A stretch of DNA of 47,598 bases from Anaerolineales bacterium (GTDB lineage: Bacteria > Chloroflexota > Anaerolineae > Anaerolineales > Villigracilaceae). Below are positions 3,760-34,478 of this stretch, piece after piece; position 1 is the first letter of the stretch, and the number at the start of each line of letters is the position of its first letter. The position numbers were made by a program, and so were the translations under genes. The stretch is from NCBI GenBank assembly GCA_046707185.1, contig JBJKOR010000567.1, positions 1-47,598 of the forward strand. Reading direction: 5' to 3'. The notes below the pieces were generated by a model. It worked only from the letters and a program-made list of their open reading frames with translations, had not been told where the DNA came from and made no database searches.

Positions 3760-3797
3760 TAAAAAAGTGACGGTTACTTTCAAGGGAATCGCCACTT
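3760..3797 (-). terminator. hairpin plus T-run downstream of the orphan gene fragment
   Basis: On the - strand: AAGTGGCG-(17 nt)-CGTCACTT followed by TTTTTAT. Stem pairs 7 of 8. Confidence 0.4.
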
Positions 3798-3886
3798 TCA
3801 GAACAAGGATAACTGCTGTGCAGCTTTTCTTCCGCCCATCAAAATATGTGGCGCAGCGCGCGAAACATAAATGCCAGGTTTTTGAA
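3798..3886 (-). pseudogene. orphan 3'-terminal fragment of a radical-SAM DNA-repair-type gene (left copy of the 94-bp direct repeat 3793..3886)
   Basis: 85 of 94 nt identical, ungapped, to 34385..34478. The frame and stop are retained (FQKPGIYVSRAAPHILMGGRKAAQQLSLF*). The reading frame closes at a stop at 3966-3968 and no radical-SAM core lies upstream. Confidence 0.7.
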
Positions 3887-4488
3887 AGGTGTGTTTGTTG
3901 GTGGCATGGCTTCTCCCGTTTCTTGCAGCATTTGGAGCGGTCGAGTAAAAGACCGATTTATGCTTTCAGGTCGTCCAGAAGGATTTACCCTGTTCCCTTT
4001 CCTGGCAGCGCTTTCGATAACGTTTTCGAACTACCAGTGGTGTAGTAGAAGACCCCATCGTGAGTGCAGCACGGAAGACGGGCAGCCTTGATTTTCCCAA
4101 TCAGGCGTTTGGTTTACGCGGTTCTTAATGAGATCGGGAAGGATTGTTTAGTAGGTAAAACGTATCTATCGTTGAAGCCGTATAACTCGGCTCTTAACAA
4201 GGATAACAACAGAAAGCATTTTGTACTATCTGTAAATCATACAGAATCTCACTGGTGGGACACTCTGCATGAGAAAGCCAAACTTTCTAACATTGCAGCG
4301 CGCTTAGGTCTAGCCCGCAAGTGGCGCGCTTGCATGGCGCCATGGCAACAGCAATCAAGCAACTTTGTGCTTTAATGCCAAGAATGCAAGAAAAACCAAC
4401 TGATAGCGACCTAATACACTTTATTTAGATAAGCACTATCATATTACTTTTGTTGCCTTAATACATGATTTTAGTAACTATAAACCGG

Positions 4489-4533
4489 CCTTACAAAATT
4501 GTAAACTAAATCTAAATTTACAAATTTGTAAGG
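4489..4533. promoter_or_regulatory. two 14-bp palindromic boxes (TTACAAAATTGTAA and TTACAAATTTGTAA), candidate operator
   Basis: Read directly. Box centres are 27 bp apart. Together they form a 17-bp inverted repeat with one mismatch and an 11-bp spacer. They sit in an AT-rich gene-free tract 200 bp upstream of the small HTH-like gene. Confidence 0.35.
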
Positions 4534-4733
4534 CTGTAGAGTGTTTAGTGGGTTTCAAAACTAACTTAGGAACAGATTTCTAAAGGTGAACATGGAAGCA
4601 TATATTCCGTGAATATGGCAATCTTATTGGAAATAACTCTTTACAAATATTTCTAAGGCACTTTCCAAAAATCGCAAGAAAAATTCCGGCGCATCACAAA
4701 AATGCCATCTCTCCCCGGCTGTGAGGAGCAAGT

Positions 4734-4958
4734 ATGAGCAACAGAGTTCAAAAATTGGCAATGAACATTGGTATGTCATATGATGAATTCATTGGCGAAA
4801 TGAGGAAGCGAGGGTGCAGCGAACCCACTGCATCGAAAATATGGCGTGGTATTTATGATGAGTTTCATGAGTTCGGTGAAAACGATATGTTTTTGAGCAA
4901 TCTCAGAAAAGCTGCAGATGTTTTAAAAGTTGCAACAGGGAACCTTTTATCAAAATGA
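4734..4958 (+). CDS. small putative HTH (XRE-like) regulator at the head of the glycan cluster
   Basis: 74-aa ORF with GAGGAG 6 nt upstream. Helix-rich, with a weak XRE-like pattern (MSYDEFIGEM..., SNLRKAADVLKVATGNLL). Confidence 0.5.
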   Translation: MSNRVQKLAMNIGMSYDEFIGEMRKRGCSEPTASKIWRGIYDEFHEFGENDMFLSNLRKAADVLKVATGNLLSK

Positions 4959-5041
4959 GAAAAGAATGTTTCTTACCAGATTTGCATTTCATTTTCTCTA
5001 AGTCGAAACGCGTATCGTTCAATTAATAGAAGGAGATACCT

Positions 5042-6550
5042 ATGGAGCTCAGACCCTACGTCAATATACTATGGCGAAGAAAATGGGTGATTCTCATCAC
5101 GGCCATAGTCACAATTGTTGTTGTTGGGATAGGCACACGCCAGACGACGCCCACTTATCAGGCTTCCACAACGTTGCGAATCGCTGCAACTGCGGATGCG
5201 TCTTCGAATTTTTACATCATGTCCACCTACAACGATCAGCTTATGAATACCTATGTCGAGATTGCAACCAGCAAACCGGTCCTTGACGAACTTAGCAAAC
5301 GCCTCAATTTAAACGCGTCACCCGTCATCGCGGCCGAGGTTGTCCCGAATACAGAGCTGATCAAGGTCACTGCAACAAGCACAGATCCAAAAATGGCAGC
5401 GAGAGAAGCCAATACCCTTGCTGCCATCCTGATTACCCAAAGTAACTCGTTGTATACGGGCGGCGGGAAAACCTCGCAGGATGTTTTATCAACCCAATTG
5501 GCTCAGGCCCAATCAGACCTAAATCAAGCACAACGGCAATACGAAAACCTGATTGTTCAAACGCCCCCCGCCTCAGGGCAGATTGATGTAGCCAGACAGC
5601 AGTTACAGCTAAAAGAAGATGTCTATGTCTCCATCCTCACACAATACCAGCAGGCAACACTTCAGGCAGAGATCAAGACAAGTATGATCACTGTTGTTGA
5701 TCCTGCGACTGTTCCGCAGGCCCCATCGCAGCCACGTGTGGTTTTAAACTATGTCCTTGGGTTGCTGGCAGGACTTATGGGAGGCGTGGTGATTGGCTTT
5801 GTCGTCGAGAATCTGGACAACAGACTCCACGATGCACAAGAAATTCAAACGGCTGCCAAATTAAATTTAATTGCCAAAATTCCGAGGGCCAATAAAGGGC
5901 AGGTCAACATTTCCCAATTGGCGCTTTCTCCAATAGCAGAGGCTTACAGGGGGTTGGCGGCAAAACTCTTATGTCAGGATCATCAAAAGGCTCCGAAAAC
6001 AATTCTGATCATGAGCGCCGAACCCAAACAAGGTGCCACAACCATATTGTCAAATCTGGCATTTTCGTTGGCGGAATATGGCAAAAGCGTAGTAGCTATT
6101 GATTGCAATTTGCGGATGCCCAATTTGCATAAAGTATTCGACGTACCAAACGACCGTGGCTTGACAGACGTATTGGAACAAAAGACGGACGTCAATAAGG
6201 TCCTGCAAAAGGATGCCAACGGACAAATCAGCGTGCTTACTAGCGGGCCGGTTCCAGCTCATCCCCTCCAGCTTCTGAATTCACCTGAGATGACTAAGCT
6301 CATCAACGAACTGGCACAAAAATTCGAATACGTGTTAATAGATGTCCCGGCTTTGCTGGCTGTAGCTGATGTAACTGCACTTGCCAAAAATGTCGATGGT
6401 TTCCTGCTTGTTACCCCGGAACAAAAAGCGACCCAACGCGCGGTCCAGGCGGCTGGCGAATTTCTGGCTGGTTTTCACGAAAAGTATGCTGGCTTGGTCA
6501 TCAATCAAGCAAAAGACGATAACAGCCAATATTTTTACCAATATCAGTGA
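5042..6550 (+). CDS. polysaccharide co-polymerase (Wzz domain) fused to a BY-kinase-like P-loop domain with a Tyr-rich tail
   Basis: AGGAGA RBS. N-terminal TM, periplasmic-type coiled region and a second TM. C-terminal CapB/Wzc-like domain (ILIMSAEPKQGATTILSNLA, VVAIDCNLRMP, YVLIDVPAL). Tail is NSQYFYQYQ. Confidence 0.85.
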   Translation: MELRPYVNILWRRKWVILITAIVTIVVVGIGTRQTTPTYQASTTLRIAATADASSNFYIMSTYNDQLMNTYVEIATSKPVLDELSKRLNLNASPVIAAEVVPNTELIKVTATSTDPKMAAREANTLAAILITQSNSLYTGGGKTSQDVLSTQLAQAQSDLNQAQRQYENLIVQTPPASGQIDVARQQLQLKEDVYVSILTQYQQATLQAEIKTSMITVVDPATVPQAPSQPRVVLNYVLGLLAGLMGGVVIGFVVENLDNRLHDAQEIQTAAKLNLIAKIPRANKGQVNISQLALSPIAEAYRGLAAKLLCQDHQKAPKTILIMSAEPKQGATTILSNLAFSLAEYGKSVVAIDCNLRMPNLHKVFDVPNDRGLTDVLEQKTDVNKVLQKDANGQISVLTSGPVPAHPLQLLNSPEMTKLINELAQKFEYVLIDVPALLAVADVTALAKNVDGFLLVTPEQKATQRAVQAAGEFLAGFHEKYAGLVINQAKDDNSQYFYQYQ

Positions 6551-6602
6551 TCACTCAAATGTAACTCGATAGACAACCTTGGTAATAGTCGGAGAATAAT
6601 CC

Positions 6603-7352
6603 ATGTATGATGATATAAGCGTAACCACGTTTGTCCAATGTGAGCCGGGCATCATGAGCAGAGCGGACGAGCAAAAAAAAGAATATTACGCTCTCAAGCG
6701 CGTCATTGATTTTATGATTGCCATCATGCTTTTGGCTGTTGCATTGCCGGTCATGCTTCTAATCGCTATCGCAATTTTTATATACTCACCAGGGCCGATT
6801 TTCTTCAAACAAGAACGGGTGGGAGCCAAGCGACAGCGTTATGGCCAATACGCCTATTGGAAGAAAGTTCATTTCACCTGTTATAAATTTCGGACAATGA
6901 AGCTCAACGCGGATTCGACTTCTCACCGGGAGTATGTAAAAGCGTTGATTGAAAATGACCATGAAAAGATGCAAACCTTGCAAGGAGGAACAACAGGAAT
7001 ACGCAAGTTGGTTGACGATCCGAGGGTTATCCGACCCGGCAAGTTCCTCCGCAAGCTAAGCCTGGACGAATTGCCGCAATTTTGGAACGTAGTTCTAGGC
7101 GATATGAGCCTGGTAGGTCCACGGCCGGCGATTCCATATGAAGTGGATATGTATAAGCCCTGGCACCTTAAACGTCTGGAGGCTCAACCTGGGATTACCG
7201 GTCTTCAACAGGTTACCGCACGATGTACGGTTGATTTTGATCAGCAAGTTCAGTTCGATATCGAATATATAGAAAAACAATCTCTTTGGCTTGATGTTCA
7301 AATCTTGTTGAAAACCCCCTTGGCAGTAATTTCGAGCAAAGGGGCATTCTAA
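6603..7352 (+). CDS. priming phosphoglycosyl (bacterial sugar) transferase, WbaP/EpsL-type small PGT
   Basis: KRVIDF...TM helix...[16 protein letters not shown], and [21 protein letters not shown] motifs. Confidence 0.9.
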
Positions 7353-7361
7353 GGAGGTCGA

Positions 7362-8501
7362 ATGGACAGAATAAAAGTAGGAGTTATAGGCTATGGCTAT
7401 TGGGGGCCTAATCTGGCGCGAAATTTCTTTGGCCTTCCCTCTGCGCAACTGGCTATGATTTCCGATTTAAGAGAGGAACGCCTGAAACATGCCCAATCAT
7501 TGTATCCGGATGTAAAGCTGACAAAGCAATACCAGGATTTCTTTGATGCGGGAGTTGGCGCTGTGGTTATTTCCACACCGCCAGCAACTCATTTTTCCAT
7601 TGCTAAAGACTGCATGGAGCATGGTCTGCATGTTCTCGTTGAAAAACCCATTACGCTTAACAGCCGGGACGCGTCTGAGTTAATTGAACTCGCCAATCAA
7701 AAGGGGTTGACACTTATGGTGGGTCACACCTTTGAGTATAACTCGGCTGTACTAGCGCTCAAGCAATATATCCAAAATGGCGCGATAGGACAAATCTACT
7801 ACCTCGATACAGCCCGTCTTAATCTTGGTCTCTTCCAAAGTGACTCAAACGTTTTGTGGGACCTGGCCCCCCACGATATCTCAGTCTTGCTGTATCTGCT
7901 CGAAGAAACTCCAATTTCCGTTAGTGCCCAAGGCTCGTCGTGTGTTTTCAAGGGTATTTTCGATGTTGCACATCTAAACCTGATTTTCCCGAACAACGTC
8001 CGAGCTCACGTTCATGTTAGCTGGCTTGATCCCTGCAAGGTGCGTCGGGTTACGGTCGTTGGCAGTAAAAAGATGATGGTCTGCAATGATGTGGAGGCGG
8101 AACAAAAGATCCGAATTTACGACAAGGGAGTTGAAGCGCCAGATTATACCGATGGTTTCGGTGAATTCCAATGTAGTTATCGGACAGGCGATATTACTAT
8201 TCCGCGCATCCACTTCGTTGAGCCTCTGCAACAGGAATGCAAGACTTTTATCGATCGATGCATTCAAACTCAGGAAAAAATCAAAGTTGGTATAGGGCCA
8301 CTGGATGAACGCGCTTTGGAAAATACAAGTGTCTCGAAGAATGGAAACCATTGCTCCGTTAATCCTAAATGCACCAATTGCCAAATCAATGATTTGGAAC
8401 ATTATAGCTGCGGATACGATGGCTTGCGGGTGGTCAAAATCCTGGAGGCCGCTCAAAGGTCCATGATGAACGGATCCACTCACGAGGCGATCACATGGTA
8501 A
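7362..8501 (+). CDS. Gfo/Idh/MocA-family oxidoreductase (WbpB-like nucleotide-sugar 3-dehydrogenase)
   Basis: AAGGAGG RBS. N-terminal Rossmann segment IKVGVIGYGYWGPN, plus the EKP motif. Context with the following acetyltransferase and aminotransferase. Confidence 0.8.
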   Translation: MDRIKVGVIGYGYWGPNLARNFFGLPSAQLAMISDLREERLKHAQSLYPDVKLTKQYQDFFDAGVGAVVISTPPATHFSIAKDCMEHGLHVLVEKPITLNSRDASELIELANQKGLTLMVGHTFEYNSAVLALKQYIQNGAIGQIYYLDTARLNLGLFQSDSNVLWDLAPHDISVLLYLLEETPISVSAQGSSCVFKGIFDVAHLNLIFPNNVRAHVHVSWLDPCKVRRVTVVGSKKMMVCNDVEAEQKIRIYDKGVEAPDYTDGFGEFQCSYRTGDITIPRIHFVEPLQQECKTFIDRCIQTQEKIKVGIGPLDERALENTSVSKNGNHCSVNPKCTNCQINDLEHYSCGYDGLRVVKILEAAQRSMMNGSTHEAITW

Positions 8502-9013
8502 ATGCTGATTTCGCCCGTATTGCACCCGATGTGAAGCTGGGCCGCGCTGTCAAAATCTACGCTTTTGTCAATCTATATGGATGTGAGATTGGCGACGAAA
8601 GCAGGGTAGGCACGTTTGTTGAAGTCCAAAAGGGCGCGAGGATTGGAAGGCGCGTGAAGATATCCAGTCATACGTTTATTTGCGAAGGGGTGACCATCGA
8701 AGATGAAGTCTTCATCGGCCACGGTGTGATGTTCATCAACGACAAATATCCGCGCGCCACAACCGCCGATGGAGATCTACAGTCTGAGGCAGATTGGGTT
8801 TGCGTACCAACATTGGTTGAACGTGGCGCTTCGATTGGCAGCAACGCAACGATTTTGTGCGGCGTGACCATCGGAGAGCGCTCCATTATCGGTGCGGGCA
8901 GTGTCGTTACGCACGATGTACCGGCTGGCGCTGTGTTCGCAGGGAATCCTGCTCATTTCATCCGGCTTGTCGAGCCTACAAAGGAAACGAATCATGAACA
9001 TTCCATTAATTGA
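8495..9013 (+). CDS. hexapeptide-repeat N-acetyltransferase (WbpD-like)
   Basis: Left-handed beta-helix repeats ([40 protein letters not shown]). Overlaps the upstream gene by 7 nt. Confidence 0.8.
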
Positions 9014-10103
9014 TCTAACCATCCAGCATAAGAATCTGCGCGCCGAGATCAATCAGGCCATTCAGAACGTTTTGGATCACGCCGATTTTATTCTTGGTGA
9101 AGATGTCGAAAAGTTCGAAGAGGAGTTTGCGGACTATTGCGGCACGAAGTATGCAGTCGGTGTGAGCAGTGGACTTTCTGCGCTTGAGCTGGGCCTGCGC
9201 GCATTGGGTATTGGGCCCGGCGATGAAGTGATTGTTCCCGCACATACCTTTACAGCCACCGCGGCCGCAGTAACGTTTTCCGGCGCCAGACCAGTATTTG
9301 TGGATGTGGACCCCGTTACATGGAATATTGACTCAATCAAGATCGAAGATGCAGTCACTGCGCAGACAAAGGCGCTTCTCCCCGTCCATCTTTACGGATT
9401 ACCAGCAAACATGCAAATGATTCGTAAGATTGCTGAAAAGCATCACCTTGCGGTCGTGGAGGATGCCTGCCAAGCCCACGGTGCAGAATTCAGCGGGCAG
9501 CGCGTGGGGAGCTTTGGAAATGCGGCTGGCTTCAGCTTTTACCCAACCAAGAATCTTGGCGCGTGTGGCGATGCCGGTATGGTGACTACCAATGATGAAC
9601 GAATCGCTGAAACCGTCCGCGCGTTGCGTAATTGTGGGCAGAGGGCTAAAAACGTACACAGTCTTCCGCCTTTCAATTATCGCCTTGATAACTTGCAAGC
9701 CGCGATTCTGCGCGTAAAGCTAAAATATTTGAATGAGTGGATTGCCTCACGCCGCAAGCTGGCTCAACTATATACTAGATTATTAGGGGGGATCAATGTC
9801 GTTCCCCAAACAGAACCAACTCTCTACAAGCACGTTTATCATTTATATGTTGTCCGCACACAAAACCGCGATGTGCTACAAGCCCGCCTAAAGGAACGCG
9901 GCATTGGCACAGCAATTCACTACCCCAAGCCTGTTCACTTGCAGCCTTTCTATGCACAAACGGAAGATCAACAAGGCAAATTCGCTGTTGCCGAAAGACT
10001 CTGCAACGAAATACTTTCCCTGCCCATGTATCCGGAAATGACCGAAGAACAAGTAGAGATCGTCGTTGCGGAAATAAGTGAAATGTTGATGCCGGCACAT
10101 TAG
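8994..10103 (+). CDS. DegT/DnrJ/EryC1/StrS-family aminotransferase (WbpE-like)
   Basis: Start chosen at ATG 8994 (MNIPLIDL...) behind AAGGAA. Family pattern includes [29 protein letters not shown] and [15 protein letters not shown] (PLP Lys). Confidence 0.85.
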
Positions 10104-10145
10104 GGACAAATTTCGGTTATTGAAGGAAGGTATTAACAAAATAGA

Positions 10146-11606
10146 ATGAAACAAAAAAATTCGAGAGTTGTGACGAATATAACAAGAGCCCGAAAATTTT
10201 TGCCTCTGCCCATAAGAAGAGGAGTTGGATGGGTAAAACGCCAACTGTCGCCACATTGGCTTTGGGAGACAAAGGAATTTAAGGAGTACTTTGCCTTTCT
10301 ACAGAAAAGTCAATGGTGGTCCCTCGAAGAACTTCGGTCTTATCAAGAAGAACGCTTGAAAGAACTGGTTAAATTTGCTTTCGAGAAAGTTCCCTATTAC
10401 CAACGCACCTTTAAGGAAAAACACTTGTGCCCTTCTGATATCAAAACTCTGGACGACATTCAATTGCTCCCGCTGATTACAAAACAAGAAGTCCGCGCAC
10501 ATCTCGAAGAATTTATTCCTGTCGATATTGATCAGTCCAAGTTGAGAATTTGGACAACAGGAGGCTCTTCAGGCATCCCCTTAAAAATTTATCTGGACAA
10601 TTTTTACAGCTCAATGATAGAAGAAGCTTTCAGTCTGCGTCAAAGATTGTGGGCAGGGTACCAATTCTACGATCCTAAGGCGACACTCACGCGGGCCTCC
10701 CTAGACAAATGGCCGACTCGGCGATGCTGGGATTACAACAATATCGAAAATGAAATCGTCTTAAAATCGCACGACATGACCGAAAGGAACTTGTTTGAAT
10801 TTGTCAATGTAATTCAAAAATTCAGGCCTAAATTTATAGTTGGATATCCCTCTTCCCTGGAAATCTTTGCGAGATTCATCAAAAGAAATAACCCTTGCCT
10901 ACCGCCTCTAAAAGCGATCTTCAGTGGCTCAGAGGCGCTTTTCCCAGGACAACGATACTTAATTGAGTCGGCTTTCAATTGCAAAGTTTATTCAGGGTAT
11001 GGAATGTCGGAGCGAATAGCCGATGCCATCGAATGCGAACAACACACCGGATATCACATCAACATGGAGTACGGAATATTTGAGCTGGTGGACAAAAATA
11101 ATGAGGCAATTGACAAGGCGGGGGTTTCCGGGTGTGTAGTTGGAACCGGCTTTCACAATAACGTGATGCCGTTAATTCGGTATCAGATGTTCGATATTGC
11201 CGTATATGCTGGGGAAAAATGTGCCTGCGGAAGAGCCGCTCCCTTAGTAAAGGATTTCAAAGGGCGGTTCAGCGAATATTTTGTTGGACGAACCGGAAAA
11301 TTAATCCCGTTGCAGTTGGTTTGGTCCGGCAGGCATGTCGTTTGGTCTAAAATTCGCGAGATGAAATTCGAGCAGAAATGCAAAGGCACAGTCGTAGCGA
11401 AGATCGTACCGGCTGACAATTGTTCAAACGAAGAGATCATATGCGAACTTAGGAACGAGGTTCAAAAAGTTCTTACAGAGGACGAATTTGATCTTCAATT
11501 TAATTTCGTTGACAGTCTCTCGCTAACGCATAGAGGCAAACTAAATTTTCTCGATCAAAAGATCCCGTTAAGTTTTGAAGATCTTGTAAATGTAGGTTAT
11601 GAATGA
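10146..11606 (+). CDS. CapK / phenylacetate-CoA-ligase (F390-synthetase)-family adenylate-forming enzyme
   Basis: TTGGSSGIPLKIY nucleotide-binding loop. Size and YPSSL, SGYGMSE motifs are typical of the PaaK/CapK family. Confidence 0.7.
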   Translation: MKQKNSRVVTNITRARKFLPLPIRRGVGWVKRQLSPHWLWETKEFKEYFAFLQKSQWWSLEELRSYQEERLKELVKFAFEKVPYYQRTFKEKHLCPSDIKTLDDIQLLPLITKQEVRAHLEEFIPVDIDQSKLRIWTTGGSSGIPLKIYLDNFYSSMIEEAFSLRQRLWAGYQFYDPKATLTRASLDKWPTRRCWDYNNIENEIVLKSHDMTERNLFEFVNVIQKFRPKFIVGYPSSLEIFARFIKRNNPCLPPLKAIFSGSEALFPGQRYLIESAFNCKVYSGYGMSERIADAIECEQHTGYHINMEYGIFELVDKNNEAIDKAGVSGCVVGTGFHNNVMPLIRYQMFDIAVYAGEKCACGRAAPLVKDFKGRFSEYFVGRTGKLIPLQLVWSGRHVVWSKIREMKFEQKCKGTVVAKIVPADNCSNEEIICELRNEVQKVLTEDEFDLQFNFVDSLSLTHRGKLNFLDQKIPLSFEDLVNVGYE

Positions 11607-12406
11607 CCAACCAGGCTGATGTTAGGCGCGTGACAAAAAACGCCATTTTATATTTTCAAAAAAACTTCAGATTGCTGCCCGCGAAATTCTGCCTGATTTC
11701 GGGATCACCGCGCTCAGGAACGACCGCACTATCGGAGTGGCTCGGCAATCATCCGGATGTGGCAGCGTTCTACGAGTCGCGTATCTTGATAAGTACACAT
11801 CGTTTTGTGGAGGAAGCACTTCGATTCAACGCTCTCGAAAAAGACACGGCCACGATTCTTGATTTGGCGCGGCAAGCGGCTCTTGGATATTATTCCTCAA
11901 CGAGAATCCTTATTGGAAAAAAAATGTTACTGGACAAAGAACCGCTCGAAGCAATTGCCTTTCCCGCCAAAGATTACGAATCGTTCATCACGGATTTTAT
12001 GAGAGTATTTCCAAGCTCTAAACTTCTCCTTGTAATCCGCGACCCCATCGCAACAGTTTGGTCAATGGCAAGGCGAACATGGGGAAATTCTCTGACCGAC
12101 GCCAAGAATATGAGATTTTCAATCGACGAATATATAGAGAATTGGCGTTCGTGCGCCCGCCTCGTTTTGGAATATCGTTCCTGTGCAAATATATATATTG
12201 TCCAGTTTGGAAAACTCGTCCGTGAGCCAGAAAAAGAATCGCAAAAAATATTGGATTTCCTTGACCTCCAAAAGGTACAAGCCTTTCAACCGCGGGACAC
12301 CAGCGAGATTGGCTTTAACGAGGAAGAAAGGTTAAATATATTCAAAAAAGTCCGGCCCCAACTTGAGGCGTTAAAAAGCCAAGGAATACGAGACCTAACA
12401 TGTTAA
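11603..12406 (+). CDS. sulfotransferase-family protein (PAPS-dependent)
   Basis: 5'-PSB loop GSPRSGTTALSEWL and 3'-PB-type VIRDPIATVWS. ATGA overlap with the upstream gene. Confidence 0.75.
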   Translation: MTNQADVRRVTKNAILYFQKNFRLLPAKFCLISGSPRSGTTALSEWLGNHPDVAAFYESRILISTHRFVEEALRFNALEKDTATILDLARQAALGYYSSTRILIGKKMLLDKEPLEAIAFPAKDYESFITDFMRVFPSSKLLLVIRDPIATVWSMARRTWGNSLTDAKNMRFSIDEYIENWRSCARLVLEYRSCANIYIVQFGKLVREPEKESQKILDFLDLQKVQAFQPRDTSEIGFNEEERLNIFKKVRPQLEALKSQGIRDLTC

Positions 12407-13872
12407 AACAAACTATCAGGCTTTCTTTCTCGCAGCATGGTTTACTTCTCCAAATAATCTTAGGCGTTGGGCTTGGGGGTTTATTAGGTTTGCTTTGTAT
12501 AAGTTTTTCGCCTTTCCTGGCGCTGGGAGTATTGTTGTCTTTTGTTTTGGTTTATATCGTATTGAAGCGGCCCGAAGTAGGGCTATTGATGATCTTGGTC
12601 GCCACATCAAGCATCGTATTCGAGGGTGAATTACCTTTGATCCCGATAGGCAATATAAGCTTGAACATTCCAGATATTTTCCTTTTGTTACTGTTTGGAT
12701 TGATATTGTTGCGATGGTGGATCGAACCAGAATTTAGAATTATCCGAACGCCGCTCGATTGGCCAATATTATTGTTCTATGGGATGATGATTCTATCGAC
12801 CTCTATAGCGGTGTTTCAATCTTCTATGCAAATTGAGCCGGCTAGAAGAGAAATCCGGATTGTAACCTATTATTTAACGTTCTTTATCGTTACTAATTTA
12901 ATCCGGGAACGCCGCCAACTCAATTTGTTGCTAAATGGCTTTTTCCTTCTCGCCGCGGTTGTTGCCGCTGCAATTATAGTGCAATTCGCGTTGGGCACCT
13001 CGATGCAAATCTTACCGGGAAGAGTGGAAAACTTGGGAACAATGGGTGCCGTTTATTCTGATGTTACCAGGATACTCCCTCCGGGTTGGTCAATCATTCT
13101 GGTTTCATTTGTGACAACTGTCTGTATACTTTCTCTAGAAAAATTGAAGCCGGCAGGGCTATTAAAATATCTCCTTTTTGGTCTGTTTGGATTTGCACTC
13201 CTAGTCACATTTCTTCGCAGTTATTGGGCAGCTCTTATTATCGCGCTCGGTTTACTGGCTTTCATCTTAAGGGAGAATGATAGACAACGCTTCATTGTTT
13301 TGGGAATCGTAACCATATCCACGGTAGCGATGCTTGTATTACTCGCGTTCATTGCCAGAAATTCAAAGGCGCAGAGTTTGGTGAACGCTTCCATTGATAG
13401 ATTGGGCACGCTCTTCAATGGCGGAACCTACCAAGGACAGGATAATTCCATAAACACAAGAATGATCGAGAATACATACGCGATTTCTGCTTTTGTTTCG
13501 CATCCATGGGTAGGTATTGGAATGGGTGCTGTGTACAGGCCCTTAGATTGGAGGCTGGATAGTCCGTCCTCTAGCCTACAAACACTGATCGAAAATGGTC
13601 ATCTAGAACTCCTAACAGATACTGGTGTTTTAGGGTATCTCACTTTTCTATCATTGTCATTTATATTTCTATATCGAGGATTACGAAACTGGAGAGGCAT
13701 CGCTGACCCTTGGTTAAAGGGCATTGTGTTGGGTTTCAGCCTCGTTTATTTGATAGTCTTGATCGCTGCGGTTACTAACTCGAGCTTTACTCAATGGCGT
13801 TGGACGCCCGTTTTGGGGGTCATTATGGGCGTCAACGAAGTAATTTTAAGATTAGAGAAACAAAAGGTTTGA
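12400..13872 (+). CDS. O-antigen polymerase/ligase-family membrane protein (Wzy-like)
   Basis: 490 aa, about 10-12 TM helices with a large late loop. Position is next to the flippase. Confidence 0.7.
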   Translation: MLKQTIRLSFSQHGLLLQIILGVGLGGLLGLLCISFSPFLALGVLLSFVLVYIVLKRPEVGLLMILVATSSIVFEGELPLIPIGNISLNIPDIFLLLLFGLILLRWWIEPEFRIIRTPLDWPILLFYGMMILSTSIAVFQSSMQIEPARREIRIVTYYLTFFIVTNLIRERRQLNLLLNGFFLLAAVVAAAIIVQFALGTSMQILPGRVENLGTMGAVYSDVTRILPPGWSIILVSFVTTVCILSLEKLKPAGLLKYLLFGLFGFALLVTFLRSYWAALIIALGLLAFILRENDRQRFIVLGIVTISTVAMLVLLAFIARNSKAQSLVNASIDRLGTLFNGGTYQGQDNSINTRMIENTYAISAFVSHPWVGIGMGAVYRPLDWRLDSPSSSLQTLIENGHLELLTDTGVLGYLTFLSLSFIFLYRGLRNWRGIADPWLKGIVLGFSLVYLIVLIAAVTNSSFTQWRWTPVLGVIMGVNEVILRLEKQKV

Positions 13873-13943
13873 TCCGCTCGAACAAAATACTTGTTGTTAA
13901 TCTCCTGTAAGTTTCCGCTTAGAAGATTAGGATAATCCAAGAG

Positions 13944-15434
13944 ATGCTAAAAAGATTCGTCGAAGACCTAGCAAAATACTCCTTATCGCAGTTCCTGCCC
14001 GCAATTACTGCCTTTATCACAACTCCGATTCTAACCAGGCTGTTTCTTCCAGTGGAATATGGGTACTGGGCATTAGCCGCAAATATATCTGCCTTTCTCG
14101 TTGCTTTGGCAGCTTCAGGCTATGGCAGTGCCATTCTTCGCTACTATCCGATCTACAAAGCCAACTCCAGTTTAGATGTATTCTACGGCACATTAACAGC
14201 ATCCGTGTTCGTCATTATCTGCCTTTCGACCATTATGAGTATATTGATTCTTTCTCTTTTCAAAACATTTATACCCTTGACGCTTTACCAGCTTCTACCT
14301 CTCGCTGTTGCCATCTTTGTTGCCCAAAGTATCTTTACAATTTTCATGTCTTTATTGAGGGCCCAGCAGCGAAGCGGATCCTTCACAACCTTTCAACTGA
14401 CTACTAACTATGCCGGACTTGGAATTGGTCTTTTATTAGTAATAGCCTTTGGTTTTCGAATCGAGGGTTTGTTGTGGGGAACTCTTGTCACAACTGTAAT
14501 TTTATTGCCCTTAATAATTTACCTGGCAGTAAGAGGAATAGGAATTAAGGTGCGACGCTTCCACTTGGCAGACGCCTGGCAAATATGGGACTTTGCCTGG
14601 CCATTAACATTAGGAAATGTGGCTATGTGGGGATTGCGCGTCTCGGACCTATATATCATCAGAATATTCCGCTCGGAACAGGATGTGGGCCTGTATTCGG
14701 TATCATATAACATTTCTGCAAAAAGCATTGAGTTGTTGGTTGCTTTGTTTTTACTAAGTGTTTCACCGCTGATTTTTGGTACTTGGGAAAATAAGGGATT
14801 GGAATCCACAGAGCAGGCGTTGACGATGGTGACACGTATATATTTTCTTTTATGTCTTCCGGCTGCGATAGGATTAAGCGTTTTAGCGTTTCCCTTTGTG
14901 GAATTGCTCACCACACCAAATTATTACGAGGGATATCATATCGTTGGATTTATTGTGTTTTCCAGTTTTGTTTGGGGATTATCAAACATTGCCATGATGG
15001 GCATAGCAATCAAGAAAAAGGCCCAGAGACTTGCGGTTAATCAAATTGTTGCCGCTTCGACCCATATAGTCTTGCAATTGATCTTCGTACCAAAATTTGG
15101 CTACATTGCTTCTGCCGTTTCAACCTTAATTGGTTATTCAGTGTTACTAACTCTCCAAGCATTATCCTCACGCCCATATATAACCTGGCGATTGCCCTTC
15201 GATACCATTGGCAAAGTAATTGCTTCCTCCGCCATTATGGGTGTCACTGCTTGGGTGGCTTTTCGATTATGTAATCTGATTACGACAAGCTTGATAGCGT
15301 CATTATTTCTAAGCATTGTTGCTGCCATAGTCATTTATATCAGTTGCTTGTTGGTATTGGGAGAAGTCAGGGCAAATGAAAGACAAGCTGTACTACAAAT
15401 ATGGCAAAATTCAGTGAGGGGGTTGCATGGATAA
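13944..15434 (+). CDS. oligosaccharide flippase (Wzx, MOP superfamily)
   Basis: 496 aa, polytopic. N-terminal pattern (SLSQFLPAITAFITTPILTRLFLPVEYG) is typical of polysaccharide biosynthesis (PST) proteins. Confidence 0.8.
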   Translation: MLKRFVEDLAKYSLSQFLPAITAFITTPILTRLFLPVEYGYWALAANISAFLVALAASGYGSAILRYYPIYKANSSLDVFYGTLTASVFVIICLSTIMSILILSLFKTFIPLTLYQLLPLAVAIFVAQSIFTIFMSLLRAQQRSGSFTTFQLTTNYAGLGIGLLLVIAFGFRIEGLLWGTLVTTVILLPLIIYLAVRGIGIKVRRFHLADAWQIWDFAWPLTLGNVAMWGLRVSDLYIIRIFRSEQDVGLYSVSYNISAKSIELLVALFLLSVSPLIFGTWENKGLESTEQALTMVTRIYFLLCLPAAIGLSVLAFPFVELLTTPNYYEGYHIVGFIVFSSFVWGLSNIAMMGIAIKKKAQRLAVNQIVAASTHIVLQLIFVPKFGYIASAVSTLIGYSVLLTLQALSSRPYITWRLPFDTIGKVIASSAIMGVTAWVAFRLCNLITTSLIASLFLSIVAAIVIYISCLLVLGEVRANERQAVLQIWQNSVRGLHG

Positions 15435-24057: not shown

Positions 24058-24086
24058 CTGCACATCGCTCTTCAGGAGATAATTTT

Positions 24087-25088: not shown

Positions 25089-25138
25089 ATTTCCGGAGTT
25101 TGCCATTGCCAGCTCTTAAATTCTGATGGTATGGAGCT

Positions 25139-25330: not shown

Positions 25331-25439
25331 TCCGGTACTTTGACCTTTGATGCAGATAACGGTTAAGCATTCTGTTCTTGGCAATATTGGATATTTCGAC
25401 AGGCGTGAAAAACTTTGAAAGACGCGGAGTAGATTTCCA

Positions 25440-26633: not shown

Positions 26634-26685
26634 CATAATCAAAAGATGTGCGGACATTATGAGGCCTTTAAGGAGTATGCATAAG

Positions 26686-27879: not shown

Positions 27880-27890
27880 AATAGGGACGA

Positions 27891-28370: not shown

Positions 28371-28377
28371 GGCACAC

Positions 28378-29442: not shown

Positions 29443-29448
29443 ATTGCC

Positions 29449-30525
29449 ATGACGGTTTTGCTGAGCAATGGGCGAAAGAATTTAAAAGAGGCGTTTCACC
29501 ACATCCTGGATATCTTCAAGGACAATATCGATCCCACGCGCGGCCTGTTTATCAAGCCCAACATCGTGTTCCCCGTCCGATCCGAAAGCGGCGAAATTAC
29601 TCCTCCCGAGTTTGTGTGGGTTTTGGTTTCAGCATTTCGGGAACATTATGAGAACATCGATATTATTTTCGGCGAGGGCGTCGCGGCAGGTTGTAACCCA
29701 TATGAAAACTTTCAGGTTTCTGGTTACGCCGAGCTAGCTCGTGAATTGAAAATTCCACTTTTGGATCTTCACAACGTGGATCGTATAGCGGTGCCATGGA
29801 AATTCGGCAAGCTGAAACTTCCAAAAGTTGCGTTGGAACGCACTTATATCAATTTGCCGCTGCTCAAGCCGAGTAACGCGTGCATCATCTCAGGCGCATT
29901 AAAAAACCAGAAGGGCCTGTTGGAGCCTGCGATGAAAAAGCACTTTCACCGACTCGGCTTACATGAGCAGATCGCAGAACTGAACAATGTAGTGAAACCT
30001 TCATTGACCATTATGGATGGCAGCCTCTTCTTTGGTAACAATGTGCTTCTATCCGGTAATAACTGCGGAGAAATCGATGCAACCGCTTGTAAATTATTGG
30101 GCATCGAAGAACCGGAACATGTCCGGTTGGCTAGAAGTGCTCACGTATTTGAAACAGAATACTCCGTTCAAGGAGAAATTGACATCAAACGCATGACTGT
30201 GCGTCCCGAGGTCAAGGAATTCAAACGCATCGGACAGTTGCGCTTGTGGTCGAATCCGCAAGCCTGTACCATGTGTCGGTATCTTTTCCGCAAGATTCAA
30301 GCCAATATATTCAAGCGCCAGAATTTACTGGCGGGTGCCAAATTGATTCCTCATTCGATCAAGGGCGCTGAAATCATCATGGGATCGAATCCCAAATGGC
30401 GGAAGGAATATGGCACAGTGATCTGTGTGGGCGCGTGCACGTACCGTATCGCAAAACAAGGCGGCTACACATATATTCCTGGATGTCCGCCCACGCCGGA
30501 AGACCTTTATAAAAATCTTCCGTAA
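29449..30525 (+). CDS. DUF362-domain protein (function unknown, Cys-rich C-terminus)
   Basis: LFIKPNIVFP...GEITPPEFV...IIFGEG pattern of DUF362. C-terminal cysteines CTMC...CVGAC...GCPP. Confidence 0.65.
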   Translation: MTVLLSNGRKNLKEAFHHILDIFKDNIDPTRGLFIKPNIVFPVRSESGEITPPEFVWVLVSAFREHYENIDIIFGEGVAAGCNPYENFQVSGYAELARELKIPLLDLHNVDRIAVPWKFGKLKLPKVALERTYINLPLLKPSNACIISGALKNQKGLLEPAMKKHFHRLGLHEQIAELNNVVKPSLTIMDGSLFFGNNVLLSGNNCGEIDATACKLLGIEEPEHVRLARSAHVFETEYSVQGEIDIKRMTVRPEVKEFKRIGQLRLWSNPQACTMCRYLFRKIQANIFKRQNLLAGAKLIPHSIKGAEIIMGSNPKWRKEYGTVICVGACTYRIAKQGGYTYIPGCPPTPEDLYKNLP

Positions 30526-30557
30526 ATCTGAAAGATTGACGAGTAGGATGCGAAGCC

Positions 30558-31598
30558 ATGCAAAAAGAGGACCAACCTATCCTGATCGAACCGTCAGACC
30601 CGCGCTGGATGAATTTTATCCAGAACTGCCCTGAAGCGAATATTTTTCATCATCCGGCCTGGATGGCGTTGATGCTTGACTGTTATGGTTACCCGGCTTC
30701 TATCCTTGCTGTACTCGATGCGAATGATGATATCCGGGCTGGCCTGCCATTCATGAAAGTGAGCAGTCCGCTGACCGGCCGTAGGTGGGTTTCGCTGCCA
30801 TTCTCCGATTACTGCAATCCCCTCTATCGGGACGAAACTGCTCTCGAGGCCTTGACCGCTGAATTGGTCAAGACGTTTCGAGCCAACGCGATCAAGAAAA
30901 TGGAGATTCGTTGGCGCCTGCCGCAACGGTCGGAGATCCAGCAAATCTCGGAATTTGTTTTGCACACCATTTCTCTCGATCTTGATCCGGCCAAGGTTTC
31001 AAAACATTTCAAACGCACACACTTGCAAAATATTCGTACTGCCGAAGAAAGGGGAGTTACGGTTGAATTCGGCAATCAGATGGAGCATTTGAGGACATTT
31101 TATGGCCTGCAATTGGAAACGCGCAGGCGGCATGGCGTCCCTGCACAACCCTGGAAATACTTTGAATTGCTTTGGCAGCATATCGTAAGAGCCGGCTTGG
31201 GATTTGTCCTCCTTGCTCATAAGGACAACGAAACAATTGCAGGAATGGTGTATTTGGGTTGGGGGAAAACTCTGATTGCAAAATATGCCGCTTCGCGTGA
31301 AGATCGTTTTAACCTGCGTCCCAACAACCTGCTGTTCTGGGAAGGCATTCGCTGGGGATGTTTGAATGGATTCAGTGTTTTCGATATGGGACGTACTGAA
31401 GTGGAAAATACTGGATTGAGGAACTTCAAGTGCCGCTGGGGAGCGGTGGAAGAACCTCTTTGCTATTCGATCCTATCGCCACAAAAAGTTCAGCCATCGA
31501 ACGACAAACTGGAGCGTATGCTTAATGCCGTAATTCAACATTCACCCCTCTGGGTTTGTAGAGTTTCAGGCGAGCTGCTCTATCGGCACGTTGGATAA
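30558..31598 (+). CDS. FemAB-like / GNAT-fold acyl- or aminoacyl-transferase (resembles the EPS-locus-associated FemAB family)
   Basis: DPRWMNFIQNCPEANIFHHPAWMALM...LPFMKVSSPLTGRRWVSLPFSDYCNPL N-terminal pattern. About 345 aa. Confidence 0.7.
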   Translation: MQKEDQPILIEPSDPRWMNFIQNCPEANIFHHPAWMALMLDCYGYPASILAVLDANDDIRAGLPFMKVSSPLTGRRWVSLPFSDYCNPLYRDETALEALTAELVKTFRANAIKKMEIRWRLPQRSEIQQISEFVLHTISLDLDPAKVSKHFKRTHLQNIRTAEERGVTVEFGNQMEHLRTFYGLQLETRRRHGVPAQPWKYFELLWQHIVRAGLGFVLLAHKDNETIAGMVYLGWGKTLIAKYAASREDRFNLRPNNLLFWEGIRWGCLNGFSVFDMGRTEVENTGLRNFKCRWGAVEEPLCYSILSPQKVQPSNDKLERMLNAVIQHSPLWVCRVSGELLYRHVG

Positions 31599-32836
31599 TG
31601 AAAAATCTTTGGACGTTCAACCACCCCCGTAACTTTTGGCAGATCCAGCCAGACCTCAGCGACGATGTTTGGCAGAATGCTATCGCTGGGGCTTTTCCAT
31701 CTCTTGGGTTGAATATCGAACGACCCGATGTGGACACTATTTTGGCGCTTACTCTTGGCGAGGCCCGCTTCGGTCCCGACCATTGGCGGCTCAGCCTCCC
31801 CAAACGGATTTATTACATCCTCAAGCCGCTTTTGCCAAGTGCATTCACGTGTGCGCTGCGTCAGCTTTATCATCCTGTGGGGAAAATGGATTGCAAGTTT
31901 CATTGGCCTGTAGAACCACATTATGCAGAATTTCTTTGGGCAATCATCGAAAATATTTTATACACGACTCCTAGTCATAAACTCTGCATGAAGTCTTTAT
32001 GGCCTCAAGGACTCCGTTATGCGCTTGTGCTTACGCATGATATCGAAACGGCTGATGGTCAAAAATTTGTGCGTGCCGTTGCGGATATGGAAGAGAACCT
32101 TGGATTCCATTCTTCTTTTAATTTCATTCCTGAGAGATATGCTGTGGATATGAATTTAATAGATGAGTTAAGAAAACGCGGCTTTGAGGTCGGGGTTCAT
32201 GACCTCAAGCATGACGGAAAGTTGTTCGGTTCGCACAAAGTCTTCGAGCAGAGAGTCGGGCGTATTAATCGATATCTAAAGGAGTGGCAAGCCACGGGTT
32301 TTCGAGCAGGTCTTACGCACCGTCAGCCCGAATGGATGCAGCAATTGGATATCGAATACGATCTTTCTTTCTTTGATACCGATCCATTTGAACCCATACC
32401 GGGCGGAGTCATGAGTATTTGGCCATTTTTCATCGGCCGCTTTGTGGAACTGCCATATACGCTCGTTCAAGACTGCACCCTGACATCGATCATGCAAGAG
32501 AAGTCTCCCCGAATATGGTTGGAGAAAGTGAATTTTATAGAAAAGTATCACGGCATGGCCTTGGTCAACTCGCACCCCGATTATTTGAGAGACGATCATG
32601 TATGGAAGGTTTACAAGGAATTCCTGGATGCGATGAAGCAGCGTAATTCCTACTGGCACGGATTACCCAGCGAAATAGCAAAATGGTGGAAAAAGCGCCT
32701 ATCCTCGACAGAAGATGTCAATGAAGCCAAAATCGCGCTGAGCGAAGTATCGCTTGATGGCGACGGCGTGAAATTGAGTCCTGATTCAACTTGGAAATCC
32801 AAGCCTCAGTATCAGAATAAGCCTGCCAGAGTCTAA
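31598..32836 (+). CDS. divergent polysaccharide-deacetylase-like (CE4-related) protein
   Basis: TAATG overlap. ALVLTHDIETADG, VGVHDLKHDG and NSHPDY resemble a D-x-E variant of CE4 motifs. Weak call. Confidence 0.5.
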   Translation: MKNLWTFNHPRNFWQIQPDLSDDVWQNAIAGAFPSLGLNIERPDVDTILALTLGEARFGPDHWRLSLPKRIYYILKPLLPSAFTCALRQLYHPVGKMDCKFHWPVEPHYAEFLWAIIENILYTTPSHKLCMKSLWPQGLRYALVLTHDIETADGQKFVRAVADMEENLGFHSSFNFIPERYAVDMNLIDELRKRGFEVGVHDLKHDGKLFGSHKVFEQRVGRINRYLKEWQATGFRAGLTHRQPEWMQQLDIEYDLSFFDTDPFEPIPGGVMSIWPFFIGRFVELPYTLVQDCTLTSIMQEKSPRIWLEKVNFIEKYHGMALVNSHPDYLRDDHVWKVYKEFLDAMKQRNSYWHGLPSEIAKWWKKRLSSTEDVNEAKIALSEVSLDGDGVKLSPDSTWKSKPQYQNKPARV

Positions 32837-32855
32837 AAAGCCATGACTGTGGTTG

Positions 32856-34157
32856 TCATCGAACGATATTGTTCTCAATTATATTACTCGTATCTACAAC
32901 GGGATACATCGTAATTGCTTTGGGGAACCCGGAGATCGTGTTCCCGAGAATTCGATTATCCTGTGAATGGCAATTATGCGGGTTGGATAAATATGGATAG
33001 TCTTCATCGTTTGGATTTGTAATCGGGACATCATTGCATGGCCATCCGGTATGACCGTTATCGTACGAAGTGATGCTAATGCCCGGTCCGTTTGTGCCGG
33101 CAGCTGCAATGATAACGTTATTCAAAATCGAGTTATTATCACCGCCTGCAAAGCTGATTCCCTCGGGAACATCGTAGATCACATTTTGCTCAACAGTATT
33201 TTGGTCAGACAAATCCCATTCAAACAAGATGCCAATACACCATGCCGTGCTTCCCAATCGGCTGATCTTGTTCCCACTTACTTCATTCCCATGCCCCAGC
33301 AGGTTCAACATTTGACAGTTGTACGGTGTATCCAATTCATCGCTGACCTTGTAAATCTCATTGCCGATAATGGTATTGTTATTGCCGTTGAATTGCATCC
33401 CTGATTCGCGATAATAATTGTATACCCGATTGTCGTGAACGTACCAACCATCTGGACTGGCATCCCCCTTGATGGTAAAGATCGCACCTGCCGTTTCCAC
33501 AAAGTCCACCCCCGCTACTTCCCAATGACTACATCCTCCCCAGATGGAGATGCCGGTGGATTGCTCACCCTGTACTCCTTGAATAACGATCCCTTTTCGA
33601 CTCGCTACGCCATCCGATAAAGTTGTTGGTGTTACGTCACTCCCTAGAATTCGAATATACTGTGCATCGGGCGTTTGCCAACTCGGAGGCTTATTGGAAA
33701 CTCTCAAGCAGCGGAAGGCAGCATAATTGTTGTCTGATACTTGATTCATCGTAAAGACTACCTGCTCGCCCGGGTAGTTTGACAAAGTTATAGGGGAAGA
33801 AGGTGTGCCTGAATTGTGAAAACTCCAGCCGCCAAACGGAATGGCGTATTCACCTCCTCGCACCTCGATCTCATCACCGGGAACCGCCTCTTCGACCGCC
33901 CGCTGGATGGTTTGCCAGGGCTTGGATCGGGATCCAGGATTCGAGTCAGATCCAAGTTCGCCATCTACAAAGTAAATATTGGTGACTGCATATGTAGCGG
34001 TTGAAGTAACTGTGCTTATTGGACGGACGGTAGCAGTGGCTGGAGGCGCAGTGGTAGGGTAAAGACCACAGGCAGATAGAACTAGAAAACTTATGAGAGC
34101 CAGTTTTGAGATTCGGCGTATAAGGCGAGTCGGGATTTTGGAATCGAATCGTTGCAT
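32856..34157 (-). CDS. secreted lipoprotein with right-handed parallel beta-helix (pectate-lyase-fold; candidate glycanase)
   Basis: Lipobox-like FLVLSACG. NIYFVDGELGSDSNPGSRSKPWQTIQRAVEEAVPGDEIEVRGGEY, typical of a beta-helix N-cap. Repeated N-x-I/V-x-G-N strands. Confidence 0.75.
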   Translation of the reverse strand: MQRFDSKIPTRLIRRISKLALISFLVLSACGLYPTTAPPATATVRPISTVTSTATYAVTNIYFVDGELGSDSNPGSRSKPWQTIQRAVEEAVPGDEIEVRGGEYAIPFGGWSFHNSGTPSSPITLSNYPGEQVVFTMNQVSDNNYAAFRCLRVSNKPPSWQTPDAQYIRILGSDVTPTTLSDGVASRKGIVIQGVQGEQSTGISIWGGCSHWEVAGVDFVETAGAIFTIKGDASPDGWYVHDNRVYNYYRESGMQFNGNNNTIIGNEIYKVSDELDTPYNCQMLNLLGHGNEVSGNKISRLGSTAWCIGILFEWDLSDQNTVEQNVIYDVPEGISFAGGDNNSILNNVIIAAAGTNGPGISITSYDNGHTGWPCNDVPITNPNDEDYPYLSNPHNCHSQDNRILGNTISGFPKAITMYPVVDTSNIIENNIVR

Positions 34158-34384
34158 CTATTTGCAAGGGAAGACATCAGCCTCGGTGCCTTCCCTCCGG
34201 CAGAACAAGCAAGAGAAGGTGAACCTAAATACAGGTCCACAGGCAAATCGACGAGTAAAAAATTACCGGCAGTGCCCGGAATCTGCCCGCAACCTGATGG
34301 ATGTCAGTATTGGTATTATAAAAGGTATTATGGTCGATTACAAGCCCACGCGTTCTGTCGAATATGATGTTACCGAAGTGACGT

Positions 34385-34478
34385 CACTTTCAGAACAATG
34401 ATAACTGCTGCACAGCTTTTCTTCCGTCCATCAAAATATAGGGTGCGGCGCGCGAAACATAAATGCCAAGTTTTTGAA
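34385..34478. repeat. right copy of the 94-bp direct repeat (3' end of the intact radical-SAM gene)
   Basis: 85 of 94 nt identical to 3793..3886, same orientation. Confidence 0.85.

Follow-up and report, generated by a model that had tools for sequence, protein, structure and literature searches.

A Wzx/Wzy-type polysaccharide locus between two copies of a radical-SAM gene end in an Anaerolineales bacterium: a probable genomic island without an integrase gene

The closest described counterparts of the locus reported here are islands and prophages that sit at the 3′ end of a conserved gene. In E. coli, the lambdoid phage 21 and the e14 element integrate in icd, the isocitrate dehydrogenase gene (PMC12803456). 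Cis-mobilizable elements (CIMEs) are islands without an integrase that are flanked by repeats of their target gene (PMC5704250), and in Dehalococcoides, a member of the Chloroflexi, 15 of 31 islands at ssrA have no integration module (PMC3146451). We analyzed a stretch of 47,598 nucleotides from an Anaerolineales bacterium of the Villigracilaceae (assembly GCA_046707185.1, contig JBJKOR010000567.1, positions 1 to 47,598), in the following called the window, in which a Wzx/Wzy-type polysaccharide locus of approximately 30.6 kb lies between two copies of the 3′ end of a gene for a radical-SAM/helix-hairpin-helix (HhH) protein. Decayed elements comparable to this arrangement are exemplified by the ICESt1 and ICESt3 relics at the 3′ end of fda in Streptococcus thermophilus. 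For icd, Hill et al. in 1989 and Wang et al. in 1997 reportedly described a substitute 3′ end of about 165 bp. O-antigen and capsule loci, which lie between galF and gnd in E. coli and between dexB and aliA in pneumococcus, are in turn replaced via homologous recombination in their conserved flanks.

In the window, positions 3793-3886 and 34385-34478 form a direct repeat, both copies belonging to the reverse strand, that aligns without gaps with 85 of 94 nt identical (87 of 97 when counted from 3790 and 34382). This pair is the sole dispersed direct repeat returned by a self-BLAST of the window (E = 6e-29); the remaining matches were tandem repeats coding for tetratricopeptide repeats (TPR) at 42.2-42.6 kb and short palindromes. 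Both repeat ends are sharp, since the adjacent 20-nt blocks match only at chance (1-8 of 20). The right copy, proximal to the gene body, comprises the last 29 codons, the stop codon and five further nucleotides of the intact radical-SAM/HhH gene (34390-35589, reverse strand) and is contiguous with its open reading frame of 399 amino acids (aa). The left, distal copy contains the corresponding 29 codons with frame and stop codon preserved (QKPGIYVSRAAPHILMGGRKAAQQLSLF, then stop), but no gene body: an in-frame stop lies upstream at 3966-3968, and tblastn gave no radical-SAM similarity upstream of about 3911 beyond the copy. It represents a displaced gene end, a pseudogene fragment. A first-pass annotation, made from the letters alone, had claimed the ungapped 94-bp repeat in one orientation, the intact gene end on the right, the end without a gene body on the left and a hairpin with a T-run behind the left copy. 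We could confirm each of these features, the hairpin having a stem of 10 bp and a folding energy of -10.4 kcal/mol.

The two junctions reveal which of the copies is the relic. Behind the left copy lies the native intrinsic terminator of the radical-SAM gene (3759-3799, reverse strand), which an RNA fold gives as the hairpin AAAGUGGCG...CGUCACUUU followed by a U-run. Its stem runs from 3799 to 3763, the T-run reaches to 3759, and the last bases of the left copy form part of the 5′ arm; in relatives, a hairpin is found at the same spot, just past the radical-SAM stop codon. Next follows the ancestral intergenic region (3697-3760, reverse strand), recognized by alignment with relatives and a promoter scan, with the conserved box ATACCTTAAAGTTTT at 3746-3760 and a predicted promoter (-35 TTGTCA at 3725-3720, -10 TATATT at 3702-3697) for a SET-domain gene (3127-3657, reverse strand; Pfam SET, E = 5e-11), the ancestral downstream neighbor of the radical-SAM gene. 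When both junctions were compared with seven relatives, this downstream region of the left copy aligned with the DNA between radical-SAM and SET in L081, L002-L006 and L011 (L numbers denote individual related loci), while the right copy, past its stop codon, passes into unrelated island DNA. At the right junction, the repeat ends within a perfect palindrome, AAGTGACGTCACTT (34376-34389, no strand assigned), in which 8 nt, CGTCACTT, match the 3′ arm of the terminator on the left with a gap. Judged by its letters, this palindrome resembles the native terminator with both arms kept and the loop missing.

The nine differences between the copies were polarized with seven outgroups. The left copy bears three radical substitutions (L>P, Y>H and D/N>G), all at columns that are invariant across these outgroups, and third-position changes that are clearly derived at position 68 and probably derived at position 32. 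In the right copy, one synonymous change and one conservative exchange, A>V, are clearly derived; the residues that are conserved in relatives are kept. Two of the nine differences are ambiguous in polarity. Since the native terminator and the SET promoter follow the left copy, and since three of its invariant residues are radically substituted, it is the relic, a displaced native gene end that decays without selection, and the right copy is the working end.

The empty site is found in relatives. For this comparison a scan with the radical-SAM protein, restricted to one genome per species, gave 80 loci, all but one of them labelled as metagenome-assembled genomes (MAGs) of Anaerolineales, Anaerolineae or Chloroflexota, and all proteins of the window were compared with the related loci, which total 82 for radical-SAM, with flanks of 10 kb. 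In 24 of the related loci, distant relatives counted, the SET gene begins 159-515 nt past the radical-SAM stop codon. The closest relatives have the order response regulator, histidine kinase, radical-SAM, SET, LuxR, HtrA and hyp137, in some cases followed by DUF2227, which is the order obtained when the two flanks of the window are joined. Relatives with this joined order include L002-L006, L011, L013, L016, L034, L064 and L079, and it recurs in the JGI contig L081 and its shorter twin L082. L081 is collinear with the window gene for gene, from DUF2227 to a gene for 285 aa beyond ApbE, with 74-94% aa identity in both flanks; full flank synteny at the empty site is seen in L081, L004 and L006. 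Within 10 kb of radical-SAM, none of the 82 related loci has any of the island genes, apart from two weak glycosyltransferase/epimerase matches. Since 24 relatives have radical-SAM directly followed by SET within conserved flanks, the 30,592 bp from copy to copy are a lineage-specific insertion, and radical-SAM/SET adjacency is the ancestral state. The first-pass annotation had predicted just this ancestral order and an empty site in relatives, and both are present in these loci. It had also considered that relatives without the cluster might nevertheless carry both copies. We see nothing of this kind: when the gene end of every one of the 80 scan loci, taken as the last 200 nt with 60 nt added, was compared with its own locus, no second radical-SAM tail was detected, and only terminator hairpins were returned.

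The intergenic site holds other DNA in some genomes. In L010, a single gene for a patatin-like phospholipase/DUF3376 protein of 964 aa (11169-14063) lies between radical-SAM and SET, a small insertion of another kind at this site, and several more distant relatives have 1.5-4.5 kb or a rearranged LuxR-HtrA pair there. Two MAG contigs, L001 and L008, end 165 nt and 151 nt past the radical-SAM gene, respectively, which may be due to strain variation or to a repeat located there in the two populations.

The displaced gene end also allows a rough relative dating. The two copies differ by 0.10 substitutions per site, and the four-fold sites of six flanking genes are 0.97 from the nearest relative. 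If the copies began identical, the insertion would have taken place in approximately the last tenth to seventh of the period that has passed since the split from the nearest relative. It would thus be young relative to this split, which agrees with its absence from all sampled relatives. An exact-protein lookup gave no identical proteins elsewhere.

The DNA between the copies encodes a polysaccharide pathway. Twenty-four co-directional genes (5042-32836, forward strand), assigned with Pfam and NCBIfam, encode a Wzz/tyrosine-kinase, an initiating sugar transferase, Wzy, Wzx, a sulfotransferase, an acyl-CoA-ligase-like protein, two sets of GFO-oxidoreductase, hexapeptide-acetyltransferase and DegT-aminotransferase, a heparinase II/III-like protein, six glycosyltransferases, a deacetylase, an epimerase, a WbuX-like amidotransferase, DUF362, a FemAB/GNAT protein and one protein of no assigned kind. 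The Pfam matches comprise Bac_transf, Polysacc_synt, Wzy_C, Wzz with GNVR and AAA_31, GT4/GT2, DegT, GFO and Hexapep, so that by its domain content the cargo has all tested marks of a Wzx/Wzy-dependent polysaccharide gene cluster. These genes are preceded by a conserved gene for 74 aa (4734-4958, forward strand), the head of the locus, which is without a Pfam or NCBIfam match and has 1442 homologues at 70-80% identity.

The composition differs modestly between island and flanks. The GC content is 0.456 in the island (3887-34384), 0.498 in the left flank and 0.513 in the right flank, and the tetranucleotide distance shifts at both island ends as well. Of the contrast in the first-pass annotation, which had placed both flanks at 60-70%, only the direction thus holds, because the flanks lie at 0.50-0.51 and their 1-kb windows never exceed 0.585. 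At third codon positions, the GC content (GC3) is 0.37-0.53 for the island genes at 4.7-26.6 kb and 0.49-0.73 for the flank genes. A 5-kb block of the island, with the genes at 26.6-31.6 kb, has a host-like GC3 of 0.52-0.66, so that the island is a mosaic. The homologous cluster in L085 is likewise below its own flank (0.433 vs 0.474), and low GC is therefore a trait of such clusters that by itself is no proof of foreign origin.

Loci of the same type occur in other Anaerolineales at different chromosomal sites. Over its head region (4.7-17.5 kb), the locus of the window is arranged like L085 and L086, with aa identities of 53-79%: the 74-aa gene, Wzz, sugar transferase, GFO, acetyltransferase, DegT, Wzy, Wzx and the heparinase-like gene are conserved in order, while the glycosyltransferase tail differs. 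The best homologues of the Wzz protein are 52-54% identical, in contrast to the 74-94% at which the flanking housekeeping genes match their relatives, and the matches with an organism name are nearly all from Anaerolineae or Chloroflexi. The 74-aa gene is immediately followed by Wzz-type genes in L086, L088-L090 and L093-L095, and it also heads the polysaccharide loci L092 and L096, with a transposase or a NusG-like gene in between (homologues at 1008-1232 in L086, 10001-10225 in L088, 10001-10225 in L092 and 7001-7225 in L096). In L096, a NusG paralogue follows the 74-aa gene directly. The 74-aa protein, far better conserved across Anaerolineales than Wzz, may be a regulator of polysaccharide loci.

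The heads of these loci often adjoin relics of mobile elements. In L088, L090 and L093-L095, a tRNA-Gln gene is followed by an open reading frame for 103 aa and then by the 74-aa gene. This 103-aa reading frame (L088 9506-9817, reverse strand) corresponds to the C-terminal catalytic end of a tyrosine integrase, contains LGHTDITLTLNAYSH and is 41% identical to the integrase of L089 (E = 2e-10). L089 itself has an intact element of 8.4 kb at tRNA-Gln (930-9401). It is flanked by a 43-bp repeat that perfectly duplicates the 3′ end of the tRNA and carries a tyrosine integrase and an HTH_17 excisionase-like gene beside attL, and a Rep_trans fragment. L088 (9329-9400) and L090 are without this element, although their 74-aa protein is identical and the flanks are more than 99% identical. 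L091 and L092 have, immediately before the 74-aa gene, a 3′ fragment of a peptidase-M42 gene (9237-9644 and 9258-9644, respectively; Pfam profile positions 212-291 of 292) and, immediately past the 74-aa gene, a DDE_5 transposase (10399-11814), so that a gene 3′ fragment at the head of such a locus is found for a second time. The 74-aa gene of L096 is preceded by an IS3-type transposase. The locus type has thus been mobile among genomes, and its surroundings suggest that across Anaerolineales it behaves like an island or at least occupies recombination-prone places.

For the window we favor, with a probability of about 0.6, a Campbell-type integration that gave attL/attR-like copies, taking site-specific and homologous variants together, and that has left a now fixed island. 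The polysaccharide locus of about 30.6 kb would have entered the chromosome at the 3′ end of the radical-SAM/HhH gene and parted this gene from SET. We infer that a circular DNA with its own copy of the last approximately 29 codons recombined with the chromosomal copy in a single reciprocal crossover, which would give the order gene body, copy, cargo, copy and native terminator. The gene body would then have been joined to 34385-34478, which would be kept under selection, and 3793-3886 would have been left, 30.6 kb away, with the native terminator and the SET promoter, to decay. The catalyst may have been a tyrosine or serine integrase that was later lost or was supplied in trans, or else RecA acting on about 100 bp of homology, with the same product. 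What remains would be a fixed, CIME-like island without an integrase.

The comparison with described systems supports such a reading in part. As in CIMEs and the Dehalococcoides islands, the 3′ end of a conserved target gene forms one of the direct repeats, genes for integration and transfer are absent, synteny is broken, the GC content is lower and the cargo is accessory; Dehalococcoides, moreover, belongs to the Chloroflexota as well. In contrast to the exact cores of 20-27 nt seen there, the repeat here has 94 nt and 90% identity, and neither a cognate integrase-bearing element in any relative nor tandem accretion is seen. Of the marks of a CIME, att-like repeats without integration and transfer genes are thus present, whereas a cognate element with the same site specificity is missing from the 82 related loci and from viral contigs. 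Of the marks of an integrated island, the repeat with a restored target gene and the empty site are present, and a recombinase gene inside the element is absent. The likeness to phage 21 and e14 lies in the integration within the 3′ part of a protein gene, in an incoming 3′ end that is similar, but not identical, and keeps the gene intact, and in the displaced native end, which persists as a fragment at the far junction. Phage 21 and e14, however, are prophages with an integrase beside att, while here we find polysaccharide cargo without phage or recombination genes. The L089 element comes from the same bacterial order, adjoins a polysaccharide locus headed by the 74-aa gene and is bounded by repeats of the 3′ end of its target, but there the 43-bp repeat is perfect, the target is tRNA-Gln, the integrase and the HTH_17 gene are intact and the length is 8.4 kb. 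With O-antigen and capsule loci, finally, the island shares the low-GC mosaic of a Wzx/Wzy cluster with a conserved head and a variable glycosyltransferase tail; those loci, however, keep one fixed site per species and have no duplicated gene end at their borders, while here the site is empty in relatives and the locus type occurs at varied sites. We know of no report of a radical-SAM/HhH gene serving as an att site.

Several observations weigh against an integration of the Campbell type. Pfam searches of all open reading frames of at least 100 aa gave no integrase, resolvase, excisionase or transposase, nor a remnant of one, in the 47.6-kb window, and tRNA, tmRNA and Rfam families are absent from it too. 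The first-pass annotation had already noted the lack of integrase, recombinase, tRNA and transposase genes, which is correct for the window. Its suggestion to look for recombinase remnants at 3.9-4.7 kb yielded nothing: no integrase remnant was detected in the roughly 850 nt of the left edge by six-frame Pfam searches (3880-4740), and neither the integrase of L089 nor the integrase remnant of L088 had a tblastn match in the window. At the insertion site, none of the 82 related radical-SAM loci has an element or a second gene end, and in the viral contigs of IMG/VR neither the radical-SAM protein nor a degenerate motif of its tail was matched. There is therefore no sign that a recombinase has used the site repeatedly, and a cognate integrase, an attP or a second island at the same site was found neither in the 82 loci nor in the viral contigs. 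Moreover, the searched data hold one genome of the species, the nearest radical-SAM homologue being 86% identical. The copies share lineage-specific codons (GIYVS), which fits an in-situ duplication equally well, and the repeat is long and only 90% identical, compared with the perfect 43-bp repeat of L089, a genuine integrase element with its integrase gene adjacent. The missing remnant, the unused site in relatives, the lack of an attP-like copy in viral contigs and the length and imperfection of the repeat speak in particular against a dedicated integrase. The first-pass proposal of a decayed or trans-mobilized island agrees with the relic distal copy, the lack of a recombinase in the window and the same locus type at other sites; a site-specific recombinase would be one candidate maker of the junctions. 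An insertion sequence (IS) or composite transposon was considered as well and rejected, given that there are no transposase genes, that self-BLAST found no other terminal repeat and that the duplication has 94 nt instead of 2-14 bp.

The geometry could also stem from an in-situ duplication that took place during an illegitimate or replication-based (template-switch) insertion and involved no att site. In such an event, a break or switch would occur in the terminator hairpin just past the stop codon, foreign or relocated DNA would be copied in, and synthesis would resume some 94-130 nt upstream. Hairpins are known sites of slippage and breakage, and here one repeat end lies inside the terminator hairpin and the right junction resembles a collapsed form of both arms. 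The shared lineage-specific codons point in the same direction, as the copies are 90% identical to each other vs about 75-80% at the nucleotide level to any relative, and so does the lack of a recombinase and of recurrent use of the site. The nine differences between the copies, four nonsynonymous and five at synonymous positions, are too few to tell an element-borne copy from one that was duplicated in situ. However, Campbell-type integration yields this geometry routinely, whereas duplicative insertions of 30 kb with about 100 bp of target duplication are, to our knowledge, not a well-documented route in bacteria. In addition, another lineage has the same locus type beside an integrase remnant and a tRNA gene, which indicates that such loci move with the help of recombinases. 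We consider a duplication in situ unlikely, although it deserves to be kept in mind.

Far less credit can be given to the other two explanations. The first-pass annotation had offered, as its second option, a hotspot at which glycan cassettes are exchanged through homology of the flanks, with the 94-mer as a leftover. Polysaccharide loci are classic targets of flank-mediated replacement, and the radical-SAM/SET interval is not inert, given the patatin/DUF3376 gene in L010, the 1.5-4.5 kb or rearranged LuxR-HtrA genes in distant relatives and the two contigs, L001 and L008, that end within about 165 nt of the radical-SAM gene. A double-crossover replacement, however, makes no duplicated gene end, homologous clusters lie at unrelated sites, and none of the 82 loci has a glycan cluster at this site, the two weak matches aside, while 24 of them show plain adjacency, so that a hotspot is highly improbable and this part of the proposal was not upheld. 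That a metagenome assembly joined DNA of related strains at or near a shared sequence comes to mind because the window appears to be a whole metagenomic contig. A chimeric join would, however, collapse the repeat into one copy, and we find two diverged copies 30.6 kb apart with sharp, distinct junctions. Both flanks are also collinear with L081 and about equally far from it (74-94% aa), and the pseudogene-type decay of the relic copy is not expected of an artefact, which makes an assembly error scarcely believable. Returning to an integration of the Campbell type, one may go a step further and speculate that the polysaccharide locus headed by the 74-aa gene is a mobile cassette, which moves between sites and genomes via the 3′ ends of conserved or tRNA genes with a recombinase that either acts in trans or disappears shortly after integration. 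Such mobility would account for the different site in each lineage examined, for the gene 3′ fragments (radical-SAM, peptidase M42) that border the heads and for the relics of integrases and transposases next to them. We regard such a cassette as doubtful at present.

The target gene encodes a protein with Pfam Radical_SAM and HHH_3 domains, the HhH part being C-terminal. It is TIGR03916-like, reaching 290.8 bits against NCBIfam TIGR03916 ("putative DNA modification/repair radical SAM protein"), which is under the cut-off of 343.5, and has 6983 homologues in a search of 5.8 billion proteins. The TIGR03916 family was named for its linkage to a UDG-like gene, whereas the Anaerolineales member is instead conserved beside the SET-domain gene, at 65-86% identity. 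A functional link between the radical-SAM and the SET gene is not known to us.

The edges of the island hold further features. The first approximately 600 nt on the left (3887-4486, no strand assigned) are AT-rich, with no coding signal and no homologue: six-frame Pfam searches of 3880-4740 gave no match at E <= 1, and blastn and tblastx found no homologues in the searched related loci or in phage and plasmid collections. Similarity to other clusters begins about 10 nt (blastn) or 5 nt (tblastx) upstream of the start codon of the 74-aa gene, with the exception of a short inverted-repeat motif. Read from the sequence, this motif is the inverted repeat GCCTTACAAAATTGTAAA / TTTACAAATTTGTAAGGC (4489-4534, no strand assigned), 200-245 nt upstream of the 74-aa gene, in a region with two tandem palindromes, TTACAAAATTGTAA and TTACAAATTTGTAA. 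CCTTACA...TGTAAGG repeats are also found upstream of the 74-aa homologue at about -180 in L088 and L094 and about -210 in L092, which makes three lineages with the window; L086 and L096 have no such repeat upstream of the gene. This repeat may serve the locus as an operator or a promoter element. At the right edge, the last island gene (32856-34157, reverse strand; Pfam, NCBIfam) encodes a right-handed beta-helix protein of the pectate-lyase/DUF1565-like kind. It lies downstream of the radical-SAM gene in the same direction, with a promoter-like site at 34343-34315, and its product has two distant metagenome relatives only (58-61% identity), both with different neighbors.

Outside the island, L081 has a tyrosine recombinase gene (3932-4912; Phage_integrase and Phage_int_SAM_1) beside its homologue of the 285-aa gene. 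At this position the window has an NB-ARC/TPR gene (40717-42717), which makes it a second variable point in the neighborhood. Within that gene, tandem repeats (42205-42558) that recur about every 120 nt and are 85-87% identical presumably represent recently duplicated TPR units. A gene for a low-molecular-weight phosphotyrosine phosphatase (45381-45854) lies 11 kb outside the island. It could be a partner of the Wzz/tyrosine-kinase encoded in the island or an unrelated enzyme of the arsenate-reductase type.

In summary, we describe an integrase-less genomic island with a polysaccharide locus in a poorly studied phylum, an ordinary event of an already known kind. It belongs to a familiar class and would reveal a new mechanism only if the cassette proved to be mobilized in trans. 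What the locus documents is the gain of a complete surface-polysaccharide pathway by an uncultured member of the Anaerolineales, with an insertion site that is known to the nucleotide and a displaced gene end that gives a rough relative timing of the insertion. The conserved, unannotated 74-aa gene provides a marker for the heads of such loci, and the relocation of whole glycan loci in the manner of islands helps to read strain variation in MAGs. Surface glycans affect aggregation, the formation of sheaths and biofilms, and phage susceptibility in such filamentous bacteria, which are abundant in soils and sludge.

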